NCBI RefSeq assembly: GCF_035594765.1
Contig: NC_085846.1
Location: 13,751,190-13,815,189, forward strand
DNA length: 64,000 nucleotides
Origin: Anolis carolinensis
Lineage: Eukaryota
Direction of reading: 5' to 3'
Position numbers and translations under genes: made by a program
Notes under the pieces: generated by a model
The model's input: the letters and a program-made list of their open reading frames with translations, nothing else
What the model was told of the DNA's origin: nothing
The model's database searches: none
Shown: positions 23,101 through 63,745 of the stretch, one piece after another
Layout: every line of letters begins with the position of its first letter
How positions within the stretch are numbered: position 1 is the stretch's first letter

Positions 23101-25406
23101 AGAGTGTTTTCCTTTCATTCACATATCTTTAGATCGAAGTACAGTGTTGCCCCAAAATGGGGGCTTTCCCCTCCAGCAGTCCCTTTACTCCCATAATTAT
23201 GCAAACACAATCCTTTGCAGGAATCTGAGCTGCAGCGCCTGGCACAGGCACGGGAACAGGAGTTGCGCTTCTCCAAGGCTCAGGCTGACCTGGATGTTGC
23301 CCGGGCTGAGGCTTTGGCTACTGTCGAAGTGAAGAAATTTGAAGCTGTGATTAAGTCACTGGGAGCCAACACGATCCGGGACATTGCAGTGGCCGGGCCT
23401 GAGATGCAGGTGAGAAACACAATCAGGGTGACCTAGAAAATAGGGCTGTCGTTTTATCCGGCAAAGTGTATGTTTTGCACCCAGAACCTCCCAAATACAG
23501 TTTCTATCTGACATCTCTTTTAGGAAAGGATCAGGTAGCAGGAGCTGAATATGATTGTCGCTTGAGACCCTAGAGAGCCCTTTCTACCCAAAATAGATAA
23601 TGCTGAGCCAGATGGACAAATTGTTTGAGCCTCCAGAAGGCAACTTATTGCCTTCCTAAGGACCTGAGGGATGTTTGGGGGAAAACAGACCTTGAGAGTC
23701 CAGTCAGCCTTCCACATTTGCTGGGGTTAGTGACACAAAACCCCCATGAACATGAAAAACAGTGAATAAAGACGTTGCTATTGTTTTTACCGGAGAGAAC
23801 CCCTCTCTAGGAATGCCTGGGTGGAAACTGACCAGAGAATCACATGGGAGAACCTGGAGCAAAGCTTTTCAAACTATGTGTCACAATGTATTTGTATGTC
23901 TGCTGCAGTTTGTAGGTGTGTCATGCAAAATGTAAAAAGAAACCTCTTATACATTAAAAAGTAAAGGTAAAGGTTTTCCCCTGATATTGTCTAGTTGTGT
24001 TCAATTCTGCGGGTTGGTGCTCATCTCCATTTCTAAGCCGAAGAGCCAGCATTATCCGTAGACACCGCCAAGGTCATGTGGCCGGCATGACTGCATGGAG
24101 TGCCATTATCTTCCCGCCAGAGTGGTACTTGTTGATCTACTCACATTCGCATGTTTTTGAACTGCTAGGTTGGCAGAAGCTGGCGCTAATAGCGGGAGCT
24201 CACTCTGCTCCCCGGATTCGAACTGCAGATCAGCAAATTCAGCAGCTCAGTGGTTTAACCCACTGCATCACCAGGGGCTCCCTCTTATGTTAAATAAGCA
24301 ATAAATCATTTATTTTTTAAAATAGAAAGGGAAGATTTTCATGAGATGTCTCTCCAATCCCCATACACTTCATTAATACAATTTATGTATGTGTCCATAT
24401 TTCTTGTAAGTGGTTAGTTAAATCTCCGGTTTGCTAGTAAAACTGAATTAATGTGTCGTGAAATGATGCATGTCTAAAAAGTATGTCACCAAAATGAAAT
24501 GTTTGGAAAGCTCCGACTTAGAGATTCCTAGGGAGGTGTTCTTTCTAGAAACCTCTAGGTTCTCCAGCATGACCAGAGGAAGTTGACCGTAGAATCTTCA
24601 TCAAATCCACAAATGTGGAGGGACAATTGTATTTACAGCATTTACAGAATTTCTATTCCGTCCTTCTCCCCCTGAAGGGGACTCAGGGCGGCTCACAGAG
24701 CATACATATGCGGCAAATGTTCAATGCCATTTATAGACAGACAATTGTACATAGATAGAGGCATATAGGCTTTTCCCATCGTCGGCATCTTAGAGGCTTG
24801 TGCTTCGTTCCAGCTACTGGGGGTGGGGAGGGGGTGCTGTTGCTCTATCTCCCTACTGAAGAGCTTTGTTTGTAAACTTCCTCCTTTGATTGAATTTTCC
24901 TGGCATTTCCTTATGGATGCCTTTAAAATACCTCCCTGCTTTTAAGCGGTACCTATTTATCTACTTACATTTTACTTTCAAACCGCTAGGTAGGCAGAAG
25001 CTGGGCTAAAGGATAGGAGCTCACCCTGACCCAGGCTTCAACTGTCAAACCTCTTGATAGACAAGATTTTACTGCAGCTGGTGGTTTAATCTGCTGTGCT
25101 AAAGTATTGGCAACCAAACTGGGGTATGTTCCTGTTTTGGACTAAAATTACGAGAAACCCGTAGCCCAAAGCAAGAACGATCTCAAACTTAGATTTAGCA
25201 ATGGAGAATTAGAAGTCTTATAATCTGGCTTTATTAACAAAGGAGCCCTGGAGATGAAATGTCCGCTTCTTCTTTTCCCACAGGCGAAACTGCTCCAGGG
25301 TCTGGGCATCAAGTCCACGCTGATCACAGATGGATCCTCCCCTATCAACCTCTTCACAGCCGCAGGGGGGCTGCTGGGCATCCTCCCCAAACCTTCAGAG
25401 TCCTGA
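711..25406 (+). CDS. MVP: Major vault protein, 16 coding exons, 843 aa
   Basis: GT-AG exons joined in phase: 711-832, 2893-3088, 4799-4922, 5608-5739, 5824-5918, 6797-7033, 8193-8318, 9593-9751, 11415-11653, 14122-14319, 16541-16676, 18262-18473, 21900-22016, 22108-22234, 23221-23409, 25284-25406 (2532 nt). Translation has vault repeats ([41 protein letters not shown]), shoulder domain ([30 protein letters not shown]), cap helix and [12 protein letters not shown]. The 5' UTR exon and promoter lie upstream of the window. Confidence 0.97.
1181..1503. mobile_element. Tc1/mariner-type MITE
   Basis: TIR CAGTAGAGTCTCACTTATCCA ... TGGATAAGTGAGACTCTACTG flanked by TA on both sides. Confidence 0.85.
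2273..2490 (-). mobile_element. Anolis-type tRNA-derived SINE (degenerate)
   Basis: CAGGAGCGACTTGAGAAACTGCAAGTCACTTCTGGTGTGAGAGAATTGG.. recognised as a common anole SINE, preceded by a poly-T tail. Confidence 0.6.
9788..9841. repeat. (AAT)n microsatellite at the tail of a LINE 3' end
   Basis: About 18 AAT units followed by CCCGCCCCATCTCCCC..GGGGCGGCTTACA. Confidence 0.9.
12510..13070 (-). mobile_element. Penelope-like element 3' fragment
   Basis: Pseudo-LTR sequence (TGTTGTTGAAGGCTTTCATGGCTGGAATCAC..) plus the degenerate GIY-YIG C-terminus shared with 45900-46910. Confidence 0.8.
14505..15347. mobile_element. Tc1/pogo-type non-autonomous DNA transposon with internal AT-rich minisatellite and nested short retroelement
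   Basis: TIR CCGTATATACTTGAGTATAAGCC ... GGCTTATACTCCAGTATATACAG with TA flanks. Internal (AATAATAGAGTAAAATAATAAATGT)n. Nested insertion at about 14795-15020. Confidence 0.75.
15710..16393. mobile_element. Penelope-like element, inverted pseudo-LTR pair
   Basis: Minus copy about 15710-16005 joined to plus copy about 16010-16393. Confidence 0.8.
17490..17830 (-). mobile_element. Penelope-like fragment
   Basis: Similar to 12640-12970. Confidence 0.7.
18736..19510 (+). mobile_element. CR1 LINE 3' fragment
   Basis: [49 protein letters not shown]; [13 protein letters not shown]; 3' end (ATTCTATG) repeat; one frameshift. Confidence 0.92.
19880..20545 (+). mobile_element. L1-clade LINE ORF2 fragment
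   Basis: [44 protein letters not shown] motifs; interrupted by (GAT)n. Confidence 0.75.
23960..24282 (-). mobile_element. Sauria SINE nested in a hAT-like element (about 23858-24515)
   Basis: AAAGGTAAAGGTTTTCCCCTGA tail, conserved body GGTCATGTGGCCGGCATGACTGCATGGAG, tRNA-like head. Confidence 0.85.
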
Positions 25407-25552
25407 TAGAGACCAAAGATGGGGGAACGCTTTTCGGCCAGACCTTCTTCCAAGTGCCTTAGGGATGAGAAGGGGCCAAGCCAAGCCTTTCCTTCTTGTC
25501 TGGACCCCGCTCGACAATGTGTGCCTTTCTGACATAGGGAGAGAAAGTCTAC

Positions 25553-25558
25553 AATAAA
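25553..25558 (+). terminator. MVP polyadenylation signal AATAAA
   Basis: AATAAA about 150 nt after the MVP stop, followed by a T/GT-rich tract. Confidence 0.7.
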
Positions 25559-25721
25559 CCTGATTCACTGCAGTTCCAGATTCTTCTTTTGGGTCCTGAG
25601 TGGTTTGGAGTGGTCTCCCTTAGATTTCTAGCAAGGTTTGGGGGAATAATCTTGACGATCAAGGAGAAAAGGTCAGAAGGGATGGGCTAAGATGGTGATG
25701 TCATAAAGGAGGTGGGTGTGA

Positions 25722-28624
25722 ATGATGTTATGAGTATTTCTGCTTACTCCAGCTTCTTCATCCTTAAGTCTTGCTAAGATTAGGCTGGCTTTATCCTATT
25801 TTGTGATAGGTGAGCACAGGGACAAACCGCTAGATCTATGAATAAGGCACTTAAAACAGCAAAGCTATGGAACCAGCAAAGAAAATATTAGAAATAATAA
25901 TTCTACATTGAAACTAGCTGACATACTATACAAGGCATAGGCAAACTTGGGCCCTCCAGGAGTTTTGGACTTCAACTCCACCATTCCTAACAGCCTCAGG
26001 CCCTTTCCTTTTCCCCCTCAGCCGCTTAAGCGGCTGAGGGGGAAAAGGAAGGGGCCTGAGGCTGTTAGGAATGGTGGGAGTTGAAGTCCAAAACACCTGG
26101 ATGGCCCAAATTTACCCATGCCTGTACTACACTATAGAACAATCTTCTCTTATTCCACCCCACTCAGGATGTATTGGACTTCAAGATTAGAAATATTAAG
26201 GCTACATTGAAACTAGCTGACAAATTATGCTATATAATAATCTTATGCTGTTATTCCACCCCATTCAGGATGTCTTGGACTTCAATTCCACTACATTTAG
26301 CTACTATGAGCCCACTGGCTTGGGTTGATGGAAATTTTAGTCCAACACATCTGGAGTAAAGTGGCAGATTGAGGAAAGGCTATTATGCAAGCAGCTGCAG
26401 CGAGGTCATGGAATTAACTTCTTTCACAGCAGCAGCAGCTGTACGTTGGTTTGACGAATGTTAAGATTGCCCATCATTCCTTCATAGGAATCAAGAAAGA
26501 CTTTTCAGTTTTATCAATAGAAAGAAAGGTGGGACAAGTGTTTGGGACCATGACTTGATGGAGTATGGAGGAAATAATGCCTCAATATGGCTGATGGGAA
26601 GGTCAATCCAACAACAGTTGAAGGGGGAAGAGCAGGGATTACCCTGCTTCTGGTGTATAATTTTAAAATGGGCTCTGGGAATTCAGAAACACTCACTTTT
26701 AGCACATTTTTGACTTCTTGGACCCACAGCTCCTGTGGAAAATCTGGGAGACAATGGACTCTACACCCTCTGGACGACTCTGGTTTGATTATCCTGATTC
26801 AAACAAAAAGAAGATCCTGGCCATTTATAAGTACATTGGAGAAGAGCCGGAATTTGTTGCCCCGAGTGAGATTCTCTTCCTGCCTCATAAAAGCCCATTG
26901 ATTTCCCTCAACTTGGGGAGGGAAAAAAGTCTTATGGGAGGGACTGGAGTTTAAAGGTAGAGTGCATGGTTTGTCTGTCGTCCCTCCTGAGTTCAAACTC
27001 TGCCATCTTCAGGTAAGGAAAATACCCTCCTTGAAACTCTTGCTGTTGAGCATGGCAGATGAGAGAGACTAAAGGCACAGGGTTATTGCAGTTTGATACC
27101 ACTTTAACTGCCATGGCTCAGTACTGTGGAATCAAGGGATCTGTAGTTTGGTGATGCAACAGCACTGTGTTGTCGCCGGAATCGCAGAGTTGTGTGTTTT
27201 CTGGACTGTATGGCCATGTTCCAGAAACATTGTCTCTTGACGTTTCACCCACATCTATGGCAGGCATCCTCAGAGATTGCCTGCCATAGATGTGGGCAAA
27301 ACGTCAGGAGACAATGCTTCTGGAACATGGCCATACAGCCTGGAAAACTCACAACAATCCTACAACTATTTGTCAGTGAAAGCTAAAGGCCTTGTAAAAC
27401 TACAGCTCAGTGGTACCAAACTACATTAAATCTACAGTGTAGATCACTGGTTCTCAACCTTTGGGTCCCCAGATGTTTGGGCCTTCATCTCCCAGAAATT
27501 CTAACAGCTGGTAAACTGGCTGGGATTTCTGGGAGTTGTAGGCCAAAACACCTGGGGACCCACAGGTTGAGAACCACTGGTGTAACTGCACTTTAAACTA
27601 AATGGACCCGTGGCCTGACTATAGGAGGCAACTTTTTTGCAGAGCTTTTAAGAACATTCCCCTTTCAGATAATATTTCAAGAGCTGTTTCAGTTCTTCTG
27701 AGCTTTTTTGCTCCAGTCTTTTTGGTGTCCTGTGTTTACAAGGGTCATGCTGTGGCAGGAAAGGAATCTATGAGATGGCTTTTCTTCTGCTCTTACAGGT
27801 AACTTCCCCAACCTGCTGCGTACTATCCTAGTAGGATCTGTCATCATTATCCTGGCCTTCTTCGTCTATCAGATCATCTCAAAAGTGTATGTGTCTTCTT
27901 GCCCCTTGCCCAATGCATTCCAATTCCCCCCCCCCCCTTCCTGTTCACTTTGGAAGGTAGTCAGTGACACAGTTTGTGTCTTATACCAGATTGAGAGGTC
28001 TGAAGGGAATTGGGGCCCTCTTTTAGAAGAAAGCAATGTATGCTCCTTCAAAAACAGTAAGCCAGACCTATGAGTTTGGCAGTCCTGTTTGTTCTGCTGT
28101 GTGAGGTTCCATCCCTGAATCAAACTCCTATCCTAAAGTCACTATTGTTGCGAGCTTTTATAGAACCATATATTCCCAGCATTGGAAGAGACCCCAAGGG
28201 CCATCCAGTTCAACCCCCTGCAATGCAGGAAAATACAATCACAGCACTCCTAATAGATGGACATCCAGCCTCTGCTTAAAAGTTTCCAGAGAAGGAGATT
28301 CAATTGGAGTCACAGGCAGCATATTCCAGAGGGATAAATTTCAAATTGTTTCTGACTCACGGTGATCTTACACAAAACTATGACTGGGTTTTATGGGGCT
28401 GGGAGTAAGGTGACTTGCCCAGGGTTACCAGGTGGCTTTTCATGGCCAAGTGGGGATTTAAACTCTGGTCTCCAGAGTTGTAGTCCAACGTTCAAATTAC
28501 TACACCACATGGCTCTTGGTGACATGGTAAGAGGTAATGATATATTCTCACCCTTGGAGTTTTTTTAAAAAAATCTTCTTCCTGGCTTTCTTTCAGGCTC
28601 TTTAAGAAGTCAAACACAGGTTAA
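25722..28624 (+). CDS. FIMP1: FIMP1/C16orf92 (fertilization influencing membrane protein) homologue; 5' part possibly disrupted
   Basis: Exon 26730-26865 (..WFDYPDSNKKKILAIYKYIGEEPEFVAP), exon 27799-27886 (SNFPNLLRTILVGSVIIILAFFVYQIISKV, TM) and exon 28597-28624 (LFKKSNTG*) splice in phase. They resemble human FFDYPDSDQARLLAVAQFIGEKP / LFHHILVGLLVVAFFFLLFQ / FQKGA as recalled. The gene is tail-to-tail with TLCD3B, as in mammals. Candidate signal-peptide exon 25722-25809 contains an in-frame TGA, so the start is uncertain. Confidence 0.75.
25932..26124. mobile_element. Palindromic hAT-type MITE
   Basis: Near-perfect ~190-bp inverted repeat centred on CAGCCGCTTAAGCGGCTG; 8-bp TSD TACTATAC/TACTACAC. 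Confidence 0.8.
27189..27356. mobile_element. Penelope-derived palindromic mini-element with hammerhead-like motif
   Basis: Inverted arms about 27189-27266 and 27278-27355 of Penelope pseudo-LTR sequence. Confidence 0.75.
27425..27579. mobile_element. hAT-type MITE
   Basis: TIR CA(C/G)TGGTTCTCAACCT ... AGGTTGAGAACCACTG; 8-bp TSD-like GTGTAGAT/GTGTAACT. Confidence 0.75.
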
Positions 28625-30086
28625 ACAGTGGGGAAGTCCAATGCTGCTCCAACCAACCACCTACCAATATTGTTCTGTTTCCATAAAAGGCTCTACAGAT
28701 GCAAGTATTTGTGTACAAGTATGAGCGACTGTGACAAACAAAGAAAACCTGAAAAGGAGGTAGATCTGAGGGGTGTAGTTACGGGACGCTCAAGGATTTT
28801 AACAACAAGCAAATCTAGTTGAGGCATCTTGCAGAGAATTGGAAAGTTTAGCTGACAGAGCAATAAAGACGCACAGTGGCCCTTGTCTGGCATTGGATAA
28901 CGGCTCCTTTAATACTTTGCAGAGTTTGGGTTATTATAAATGCACCCTACCCAGCCCCTATTTACAGCTGGATCCCTGCCCCTACGGAGTGGGGATTTCT
29001 AGGGGGAGAGGAGCAAGGGGATTATGTGCTGAACGGGGGAAGGGGTGGCAAGAGCAGAGGGAGGGACGTTTCCCTGCTTGGTTATTGCTAAGTGGGGGGA
29101 GCCATACATATGTCAGAAAAGCATTCTTCTGGTCAAACTTCTCAATGCAAAGGAATAATATTTTAATACACTTTGCGGATGTGCTGAGAGGGTAACATTT
29201 CAGTAATACTGATGATCCCTTTGTATTGAGCGGCATCCAAAAGTTCTGGGGGTATTTCCCTTATTGGGCAAGCCTATGAGAATGAATGATACTACCAATA
29301 AAAAAACCTAAGAATTCCAATAATAAGAGCATGGGGGGGTATTCAAACCCCTCTCTATTTCCCCTATACTGCAGCTTGATAGATAATACTGTAGGGAGAG
29401 GGGAGGAAACAAGCCAGCCTTTATCTGATTTCCCCCGCCACCCTATCATTTGCAGTTCCTTCTTTCTCCAGGTAATGGAATCACCTTTTACCATATTGGC
29501 AGGCTTTTCCCCTTGCTCGGTATATATTTGGATTATTCTGGGTCATTACTGTAACTGCGTGGCAAGAAATAGCAGTTTGGCAAAGCCCATGACACTCTTG
29601 GGACACCCTTGTTTAATCTTATAACTCTTCTCATAGCCCTGGCCAAAAATAATAACTTCAACCATATTCTGTTCTAGGTGTTTAGGTCTCCTGTACCTGA
29701 CTGGCCAGTGTGTGTCTCCAAAAAACCAAAAAGATATTCCCTATATTTTCTTTTGGCTTGAGACTTTACTCTCCCCCCCCCCCCCCCCCCCAACCAACCC
29801 TGCAACCTTAACAAAAAATACTGACAAGTGATGCAAAATCAGAGGGTTGCCTTTGGCAGACGGATCCCACACTAAACCCTAGAGATTGATTTTGGTTTTC
29901 TGTGCCCTCCAAATACTGTTGTGGGAGACCCCCCCCTTCCCTTTCCAGCCCCTCCCAAATCTCCCTTTGGCCTTAGGAGCCTACTCCTCCCCATCCCCAA
30001 TCAATCCAGTCCCTCCCGTACCCCAATAAATAAATAAGTTAAGGGGAAATGTGGTCTGTCCATTTGCGGCGGAGGGAAAGAAGTCA

Positions 30087-36362
<6,276 letters not shown>

Positions 36363-57149: not shown

Positions 57150-57580
57150 AAGAACGGGCGGAAAAAAGGAGAGCGGCTCCATCTTGGAAACGGGGAGCCA
57201 AAATGGCCGCCCCGCCTTCCCTCGGGCTTCAGGGCCGCCTTTGCCCGCTCCCAAGATGGCCGCCCTTCCTAGGGTGGGAGGGGGCGCGCCGCTTTCCCAT
57301 CAGCCCCGCCGTCGGGAGCGGGAGCTGCTGCTGCCTCTGCTGCCATCGGGACTGCGGGCAGGGATTGGAGGCGGAGGAGGGGAAGGGAAGGGAAGAGAAG
57401 GGGCTCCGGATGGGGAGGAGGGCGGTCCTTCTGGGCGGCAGGGGGCGGGGAGGGGCCTCCATTGTGGCTCGAAGGGGCTGCAATGCAGGGCGGGGGCCTT
57501 CCTTCCTTCCAGGGAACGCGTGAAGGATTGCGGGCTCACGGGGGCTTCTGAAGGCCTGGGCCTCTTGAGCGGTTAGCAGG
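57150..57580 (+). promoter_or_regulatory. CpG-island promoter and non-coding first exon of the Crk-family gene
   Basis: GC/CpG-rich. Two YY1 motifs: CAAAATGGCCGCC (57199-57211) and CAAGATGGCCGCC (57252-57264), plus GC boxes. An acceptor TTTTCAG at 58900 precedes the ATG exon. Confidence 0.7.
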
Positions 57581-58776
57581 CGGCAAGGCTGTCATTTGAG
57601 GGCGGTCGCTATTTGGGGCATCCGTTATTTGGGGGGCCTACAGCTTGGAGTGATCACAATTTTGTGGCCTCTACAACTTGAGGCTTTCATTCCTCAATCA
57701 GGGCGATTACAATTGGATGCCTTCATGGTTTCAGGGAATCGCAACGAGGTGCCCAAATTTGGGGCATTATTCATTCACCATTTGACGTGCCAACAATTGG
57801 AGTGATTACAATTTGAGGTGCTCTCAATTTAGGGTTACGTGTAGGGTGTGTGCATGTTATTGTATAGCATTGAGGCGCTCTCTCTCAATTTAGGGTTACT
57901 TCTAGGGTGTGTGTGTATTATTGTAAAGCATTGAGGCTGTATTATATATATTTTTTTGTGGGAAGGGTAGTTAATTTCATACCTATACAACAGGTTTTGG
58001 GGATATTCCGATTCAGCTTTGTGGAGGAAACCAGATTGAATTGTGGTGATGTAGATTTTTCCAGACTGAGAGTTTAGCAGATTTGTGTGATTTATTATTT
58101 TATTTTAGATTAAATCTTGAGTTTGGAATTTCCTGTGGGGGTGATTATAGCATCCAGATATCCTGCCCATTTTGTACAGCAACTCCATTTGGGGAGGAAA
58201 TAGTTATTTGTAACTATTATTAGTTATTATTATAATAGTTATTTGTAACTAAACCAACCTTTTAAACTACAGTAGCATCCTACAGTTTTGTAAGGTACTG
58301 CTAACTCTGTCGAGATATTGCAGGAATCTGGAGGTGCAATCATATATTACTTGGGGGGAGACCTTCTGTGGACTGTTTTACTCCCAAAATGCCCTTAAAG
58401 AGCATTGAGAAATGCTCTTTAATTTTGTAGGAACTGCCTGACACCAGAGAACCTAAAGGTCGCATGTGTGTTGCCTTGTGCACAGGGCCCTTATTTACCT
58501 GTATTGTTTATTAATTTTAGTAAAATCTCTTTGAACTTCTAGTAGAGTGCATTATTTTGGAAAGTAAGCTATAATTCCTGAAAACTATCGCCGTTGGGGG
58601 GGAATGTTATATATGGCACTCCATTTATGCGAAGGATTTCAGCGCAGAAGCTTTAATTTGCATTCCTAAGATACTTTTTTAATGGAAAAAGTGTATATAT
58701 ACTGCTGTTATTAGTAGGAGGGGAAGAATATTAGATTTGGATGATTTGAGGTGGAGCTACGTTTTTTTCACTGTGA

Positions 58777-62546
<3,770 letters not shown>

Positions 62547-63745
62547 GTGTGTGGCGTATCCCTTGAACTTTGCCTTTCCCTATAAGGGGTTACGACTCCT
62601 GAACTCTGACATGTGACCACCTGGCCACCTTGAACATTGTACCTCCTGACATGAGCCTTGAAACTTTAAGCTCCCCCCACCATGGGTGTTATTGATCACC
62701 CAGTTCATTGATAGTTCAACTCCTTGGACATGGACCTCTGCTTCCACCTTGAACCCCATTGACTTACGAACTTTGCTCCTTCACTGGCTGTTCTTAAATA
62801 TCAACTTTGACCCCCTTTGGGCTTGCTCCATCTTTGCTCCCCAAGAACGCAGTGATTCTTTTGGCCTTGTGGTTTCCGATTCTGATGATGTGCTACTCCG
62901 CCTCCCATGACCTGTGACCCCAGGGGCTCTTGACCTTTGATGGCTGACCCCTTTAGCTGTGTGTATTTTTCATCGGACCCTGCTGTCATTGACTTGGACC
63001 TGAGTGACCAGAGTCTTGCTGCCCCAATAGGAACCCCATTCCGCTTGTTGTCTGTTCCAAACCGCCTTGTTAATTAAAGTTTCCTGCAGAGTATTCCTCA
63101 TTGATAAGTTCCTCCTTCAGGGGAGGGGCCCCGAGAGCGTGGATGGGCGGGTGGGGGGAAAGTGGCAGTGTTGCTAGGGCAACCAGCATCACAACCTAGG
63201 CCTTGCAGGTTGTCATGGTGATCTGGCTCATAGCCTATTCCTGTAGGAAGGAGGAGAATGTAGCAAATGCCACACTTGTTGGCTGGGGAGCCTTGGTTTC
63301 CATCTGTTGCTGTCTTGCCAAGCCTACCATTTTGTTTTAGGATGAAGACGGACTCCCCATGCATACCAACAGCTCCTGCTTTAATAGGTACAGCGTCATT
63401 CTCCCTTCTAATCTGATATATATATATACACATTTATGAGAGCCTGTAATACAGTTTATATCTCTTTTTGATTTTAAAAAACTGGCTCTTCTGTTCTGGG
63501 ATCTTCACTGACAGCATCATGGTATAGTCAGAGTTCCTGATAGCAAGGCCAGATTTGCATAGCATTTTTAAAAAAGCACAGATAATACATATACACATTG
63601 AAATAAACATCTCTGACAAATGCATTTTAAGACAGAGGCCTCATCAGTACCGAGTGTTCAGTGCCTATCAAACTGCATTACATGCTCAGTATAGATTCTT
63701 ACAATGCAGTTTAACTACAGTGAACTTGATTATATGAGTCTACCC

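Follow-up and report, generated by a model that had tools for sequence, protein, structure and literature searches.

Mammalian FIMP is a testis-specific type I membrane protein with a cleavable signal peptide, needed for fusion, and the passages of PMC7196805 that deal with it describe it as conserved in mammals. The relevant part of PMC8488580 (2021) credits it with no clear non-mammalian homologues. Two preprints of 2026 touch on its history: the SPARK preprint calls its vertebrate distribution limited and scattered, and the TMEM95-FIMP preprint considers TMEM95 to be older than FIMP. In the human protein the modelled TMEM95-binding segment comprises residues 62-86, with F69-D70-Y71, and the substitutions F68A, F69A and Y71A each abolish TMEM95 binding. 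The sections on FIMP of PMC8790511, PMC12615630 and PMC8406655 added nothing on the reptile gene, and a literature search found no paper on anole FIMP or its 5′ damage; the figures or supplements of the two preprints may list reptiles.

In public annotation FIMP is at least tetrapod-wide. Proteins named FIMP or C16orf92 homolog exist for Sceloporus, Pogona, Podarcis, Zootoca, Hemicordylus, Pantherophis, Crotalus, turtles and two caecilians, and unnamed matches for Phrynocephalus, Varanus and Laticauda. The FIMP-like caecilian and Pelobates sequences are P0023, P0011 and P0040; the model of the frog Pelobates has a FIMP-like C-terminus behind a protein called signal-regulatory beta-1-like and probably merges two genes into one. 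In Crotalus adamanteus, one FIMP protein (P0026) bears the name "major vault protein-like", which hints at an MVP neighbour in snakes too. Among the matches listed (120 of 150) there was no Anolis sagrei, gecko, bird or crocodilian protein, which does not imply absence from those animals. A search for longer or fused FIMP forms gave one match, a turtle model, and a PDB sequence search with the squamate alignment gave none at E<=1. Two matches, P0016 and P0022, were unrelated repeats and were left out of the comparisons.

Identity of the anole locus

The window is the whole stretch of Anolis carolinensis DNA that was analysed, 64,000 nucleotides long. The features relevant to FIMP are:

25722..25809, + strand: decayed remnant of the ancestral first coding exon, which encoded the signal peptide; 88 nt, intact GT donor at 25810, TGA 25731 in the frame of the ATG, at least two frameshifts
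25933..26123, no strand assigned: palindromic high-copy element in intron 1, putatively MITE-like; inverted repeats I3/I4, contig depth very high, loose ends at 25933 and 26124
26587..26652, + strand: candidate alternative first exon with ATG; phase-0 GT at 26602 and 26653, both in the FDY frame
26730..26865, + strand: exon 2, 136 nt; probable 11-nt deletion near 26748, internal ATG 26754, WFDYPD motif and the helix following it
27799..27886, + strand: exon 3, 88 nt, transmembrane helix; length equal to that of the mouse transmembrane exon
28597..28624, + strand: coding part of exon 4, short basic cytosolic tail and TAA
28862..28867, + strand: AATAAA, candidate FIMP poly(A) signal
30087..30437, − strand: last coding stretch of the tail-to-tail TLC-domain gene (Pfam PF03798), presumably TLCD3B by synteny

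Two further palindromic, high-copy, MITE-like insertions lie in FIMP introns at 27189-27355 and 27440-27584, making three in all.

On sequence evidence, the anole locus is the orthologue of FIMP (C16orf92). The exons 26730-26865, 27799-27886 and 28597-28624 have AG/GT ends and are joined in phase, and splicing of 26754-26865, 27799-27886 and 28597-28624 gives a 75-codon ORF from ATG 26754 whose product is 100% identical to P0002, the RefSeq protein XP_062814027.1 of A. carolinensis. The original prediction, in which three exons splice in phase to FDYPD, a transmembrane helix and a short tail, is borne out by these ends and this ORF. A query in the exon-2 frame had a single match, at 100% identity, named C16orf92 homolog of A. 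carolinensis; the cluster of the matched protein has three members, one of which (XP_062814027.1, 75 aa) is named fertilization-influencing membrane protein. P0002 scores 46.1 bits against the Pfam FIMP family PF17672 (gathering cut-off 25; E=5.8e-12), and an HMM built from 20 mammalian FIMP proteins recovers FIMP at E=8.8e-18, the best non-FIMP ORF among the 2151 ORFs of the window reaching E=0.79. MVP lies upstream of anole FIMP and the TLC-domain gene downstream, tail to tail on the − strand, with its stop codon 1463 nt away from that of FIMP; in the part of PMC11848116 on this region, human C16orf92 is next to TLCD3B, in an interval that also holds MVP. From synteny we infer that the TLC-domain neighbour is TLCD3B and not a paralogue. 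The anole protein contains WFDYPD, hence the aromatic (F/W)FDY motif of FIMP, with the W at the first motif position that is common to other reptile and caecilian FIMP proteins, and the gene has the four-exon layout with the transmembrane helix on an 88-nt exon 3.

The protein match, the profile scores, the neighbours and an exon 3 of 88 nt as in mouse therefore support the FIMP homology put forward from the sequence, and with it the syntenic position and the view that FIMP is older than mammals. The orthology itself is already known, since FIMP is publicly annotated in Anolis as well as in lizards, snakes, turtles and caecilians. We class the locus by its orthology to FIMP and do not count its product among the canonical type I FIMP proteins. 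The window also contains, beside the TLC-domain gene, a CRK-like SH2-SH3 adaptor gene (about 57200-63000, + strand; Pfam SH2 and SH3), which is absent from the human 16p11.2 gene list and is possibly a CRK paralogue lost in mammals.

Lesions in exons 1 and 2

The first exon of five lizard proteins has 31 codons (94 nt), is hydrophobic and shares an LLQLL motif; that of Pantherophis, also hydrophobic, has 30 codons. The anole exon is 88 nt long as against the 94 nt of the five lizards, has a TGA at 25731 in the frame of ATG 25722 and ends at a phase-1 GT donor at 25810. A frameshift-aware alignment of the squamate exon-1 profile to 25601-25900 ran, unforced, from ATG 25722 to the phase-1 donor. 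The score against six squamate first exons was reached by one of 1000 dinucleotide shuffles of 25571-26729 (ATG and GT required) and ranks second among 1364 ATG-to-GT sites in the window and first on the + strand, the higher-scoring site being 3548 on the − strand. Moreover, the anole sequence read on past the donor (GEHR) is matched by a model of Podarcis raffonei in which the donor is likewise read through; the match was equalled in 0 of 1000 shuffles and ranks second in the window. From the alignment ends, the shuffle tests and the read-through match, 25722-25809 is taken to be the orthologous first exon, and the signal-peptide exon with TGA 25731 and a phase-1 end was correctly located from the sequence.

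The squamate-invariant LLQLL lies in a frame different from those of both ATG 25722 and the donor; exon 1 therefore carries at least two frameshifts, at approximately 25728-25746 and 25759-25770. Since the conserved motif stands in a different frame, the earlier reading of TGA 25731 as a lone Trp-to-stop change, the sole lesion of the exon, is rejected; the TGA may be either a by-product of a shift or a genuine nonsense change. The lizard-invariant residues P27, L29 and T31 are S, F and I in the anole donor frame. With the exon frameshifted there is no cleavable in-frame N-terminal signal peptide of the kind found in canonical type I FIMP, and the best 9-residue hydropathy at the N-terminus of the 75-aa ORF is −0.73. 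Both Sceloporus RefSeq models (P0004, P0033) also do without a signal-peptide exon, their start lying in the homologue of anole intron 1; they were considered too weak a proof of an older loss, as they may reflect annotation gaps.

In exon 2 the distance from the acceptor to the F of FDY is 54 nt in the anole, while the distance deduced from the proteins is 65 nt in six of eight squamates and 62 nt in two; the whole exon has 136 nt against 147 expected from iguanians and snakes. Its first codons agree with those of the relatives when read in phase 1; from 26748 onward the FDY frame applies, and the alignment is free of gaps. The simplest account would be an 11-nt deletion just 5′ of ATG 26754. 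A 1-nt indel at 26760-26785, as originally proposed, is rejected on the ground of that gap-free FDY frame. The suspicion of a young pseudogene was thus right about the reality of the 5′ damage and understated its extent, which amounts to at least three indels and not to one stop plus one 1-nt indel.

Independent evidence for the lesions

Errors of assembly or consensus in an otherwise intact gene would produce a stop and frameshifts as well. The contigs of four sequencing runs from four studies, a small sample, were aligned to the window. Exon 1 has no gaps in all four runs (the X19 contig ends at 25794). The start of exon 2 is covered in three of the four, with no gaps in X17 (to 26848) and X20; the X16 piece over it has four gap letters at unlisted places within 26080-26863, and no piece of X19 over it is among those listed. 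At position 25789 in exon 1 the window has C and all four runs have T, which may be a rare allele or a consensus error. This difference and the gap letters of X16 are what speaks for an artefact; the former, however, alters neither frame nor stops. Between the acceptor and FDY the older RefSeq anole model also has these 18 codons; one residue of its tail is different, so that it likely derives from another assembly. An artefact, which had been entertained as one of several causes, is thereby effectively refuted and we give it almost no credence. The lesions appear to be genuine and, on this small sample, fixed in the species, so that for its 5′ part the gene has the disabling, fixed lesions of a pseudogene (four runs; three of them at the start of exon 2).

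None of the 24 runs listed for the species is on record as RNA. X17 and X20 do hold RNA, each with a spliced MVP contig, and the runs carry no tissue labels. Their listed pieces over the FIMP region are unspliced across the exon borders and of low depth. No FIMP splice joint is found among the 15 joints listed from a table that has 1292 more and is swamped by repeats, a result that, with unlabelled tissue, is uninformative for testis. The spliced MVP contig of both runs (23221-25969) runs past the AATAAA at 25553 to about 25965, although the contigs give neither strand nor ends, and the 3′ region of MVP thus seems to be extended and to take in the decayed exon 1 of FIMP. X17 also has a 2458-nt contig of depth 311 that starts near 28359 (28359-29100 and beyond); it is likely to be 3′ UTR from the TLC-domain gene and to overlap FIMP exon 4 in antisense.

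Constraint or decay of the downstream frame

All the lesions fall within the 129 ancestral coding nucleotides above ATG 26754, none in the 228 nt below it, and the splice dinucleotides are intact. By position alone, the probability of such clustering is 0.047 for three lesions and 0.017 for four. A toy comparison of two models that includes residue conservation came out 32 to 2669 times in favour of 3′ constraint, depending on which of 18 parameter settings was used, values that are indicative only, the model being crude, with assumed indel rates, a flat age prior and a lesion count that depends on the alignment. Anolis keeps 23 of the 26 columns invariant in ten other squamates, the leave-one-out losses elsewhere being 0-4; the three changed residues are a D to N just after FDYPD and two positions in the transmembrane helix. 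Anolis and Sceloporus share 78% identity over the 66-residue core, and the Anolis branch is about three times as long (0.21 versus 0.065 substitutions per site); Phrynocephalus, with an intact gene, has a branch of 0.22. Unique changes number 4-8 in Anolis and 2-5 in Sceloporus, with more in Anolis for five of six outgroups, and relative-rate tests between the two were non-significant for all six (p 0.18-1.0). The branch data are compatible with relaxed selection or with a fairly young pseudogene.

A unitary pseudogene, in which one 5′ lesion inactivated FIMP, more followed and the 3′ ORF stayed intact merely through the short time elapsed, would explain why a type I membrane protein is deprived of its signal peptide by at least three frame-breaking indels, seen in independent studies, and would agree with the longer Anolis branch and the alteration of three of 26 invariant residues; losses are plausible, too, in view of the scattered distribution reported in the SPARK preprint. 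It sits poorly, nevertheless, with the lesion-free 228 nt and the intact dinucleotides at every splice site, the neutral time required for two or three further indels should have altered more invariant residues, and the rate tests were non-significant. We regard the death of the gene as a serious, if on balance doubtful, possibility. Because every lesion is upstream of ATG 26754, the use of this internal ATG or of a phase-0 first exon, both suggested from the sequence, is favoured over decay of the whole gene, even with the appreciable weight that decay retains.

A candidate replacement first exon

Transcripts might begin in the old intron 1, with ATG 26587 and splicing at 26653 to exon 2, and encode a 105-residue precursor; a putative 1-nt loss added to the 11-nt loss of exon 2 makes 12, which would keep the frame and supply a new hydrophobic, signal-like stretch. 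ATG 26587, which is also the start of the older anole model, has A at −3 and G at +4. The 9-residue hydropathy of 2.69 is the highest of 15 in-frame phase-0 candidates (next 1.79), and eight FIMP proteins with the usual N-terminus score 1.79-2.56 in the same comparison. Sceloporus models can be aligned to the region if one −1 shift is allowed, and donor 26653 falls exactly on the junction of Sceloporus model X1. Yet 144 of 1000 shuffled introns yield a candidate as hydrophobic, and the frame would be restored by chance in one case out of three. The Sceloporus similarity was rejected as proof of a coding exon because it extends on through the intron, with a stop and shifts in Anolis, hence with no sign of coding constraint; Sceloporus also has Gly, not Met, at the start, and X1 lacks a hydrophobic stretch in this exon. 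The exon is absent from the current RefSeq model, and the other phase-0 GT, at 26602, agrees with P0001, the older RefSeq model, the short first exon of the older models being 26587-26601. We consider translation from ATG 26587 unlikely, and a shade less likely still the complete scenario in which the signal peptide was replaced by one born from intron sequence (26587-26652; compensating 1-nt and 11-nt deletions) while the ancestral exon decays inside the extended MVP 3′ region.

A proposed FIMP without signal peptide

The explanation that we hold to be the best, with somewhat less than even confidence, is a FIMP that has lost its signal peptide, is translated from ATG 26754, is inserted by its own transmembrane helix and may well be still working. 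In the model, a testis mRNA would be translated from ATG 26754 into a 75-residue protein kept by selection. This ATG, with A at −3 and G at +4, encodes a Met that Pogona and three snakes also have at this position. If the old exon 1 were still spliced on, scanning would have to proceed past three upstream ORFs (3, 2 and 15 codons), ATG 26754 being the fourth ATG; reinitiation can follow short upstream ORFs. The protein would enter the ER through its transmembrane helix, as a predicted N-out signal anchor. The helix is strongly hydrophobic, with a net charge of −1 before and +3 after it. According to the passages on N-out anchors in PMC6269167, short unfolded N-termini, a hydrophobic helix and positive charges favour such insertion, and translocated segments are usually under ~40 residues; with ~45 residues ahead of its helix, the anole protein is therefore a borderline case. 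The TMEM95-binding FDY loop would face outward and could serve in the sperm fusion complex, and the segment that matches human residues 62-86 lies wholly below Met 26754, within the 75-codon ORF. The current RefSeq model is exactly this ORF, itself a prediction. As a counterpoint, the hydrophobic first exon is conserved in six other squamate proteins with a full N-terminus, which means that the signal peptide is as a rule retained in this group. The remaining probability belongs to an intact paralogue elsewhere or to other gene structures.

A model reptile whose FIMP has a destroyed targeting exon and a preserved TMEM95-binding core was not found in the literature search. If a signal-less FIMP does work, the N-terminus is dispensable and a subunit of the fusion complex can switch its route of ER insertion; if the gene is dead, the anole would be a fertile amniote with a natural knockout of FIMP, in which to ask whether TMEM95 works without FIMP. 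The scope is in either case narrow, that of one lineage.

Comparison with known systems

The squamate FIMP proteins of Pogona, Phrynocephalus, Hemicordylus, Podarcis, Pantherophis, Crotalus and Sceloporus resemble that of the anole, with 60-78% identity over the 66-residue core and equal exon phases. The five lizards and Pantherophis differ from it in having an in-frame hydrophobic first exon of 30-31 codons, which Anolis does not have. The models of Sceloporus, P. muralis, Zootoca, Laticauda and Varanus are also without that exon, absences that can be annotation gaps since two congeners of P. muralis possess it. Among the anole records, the protein XP_062814027.1 equals the ORF of the window, and the record names give no hint of an N-terminus lost by fixed lesions; the older models XP_008115346.1 and XP_016851540.1 have a short first exon instead.

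Mouse FIMP (4930451I11Rik) and human C16orf92 (PF17672) share with the anole gene the four exons, the 88-nt transmembrane exon 3, the FDY motif and the TLCD3B neighbour. They differ in the signal peptide, which mammalian FIMP has and which is broken in the anole; and MVP, the immediate upstream neighbour in the anole, is ten genes away in human. With N-out (type III) signal-anchored proteins inserted by the EMC, the anole protein has in common a short N-terminal domain, a single hydrophobic helix and basic residues after it. This likeness is one of proposed mechanism and not of family, and the N-terminal domain of the anole protein, at ~45 aa, stands at the long end of that class.
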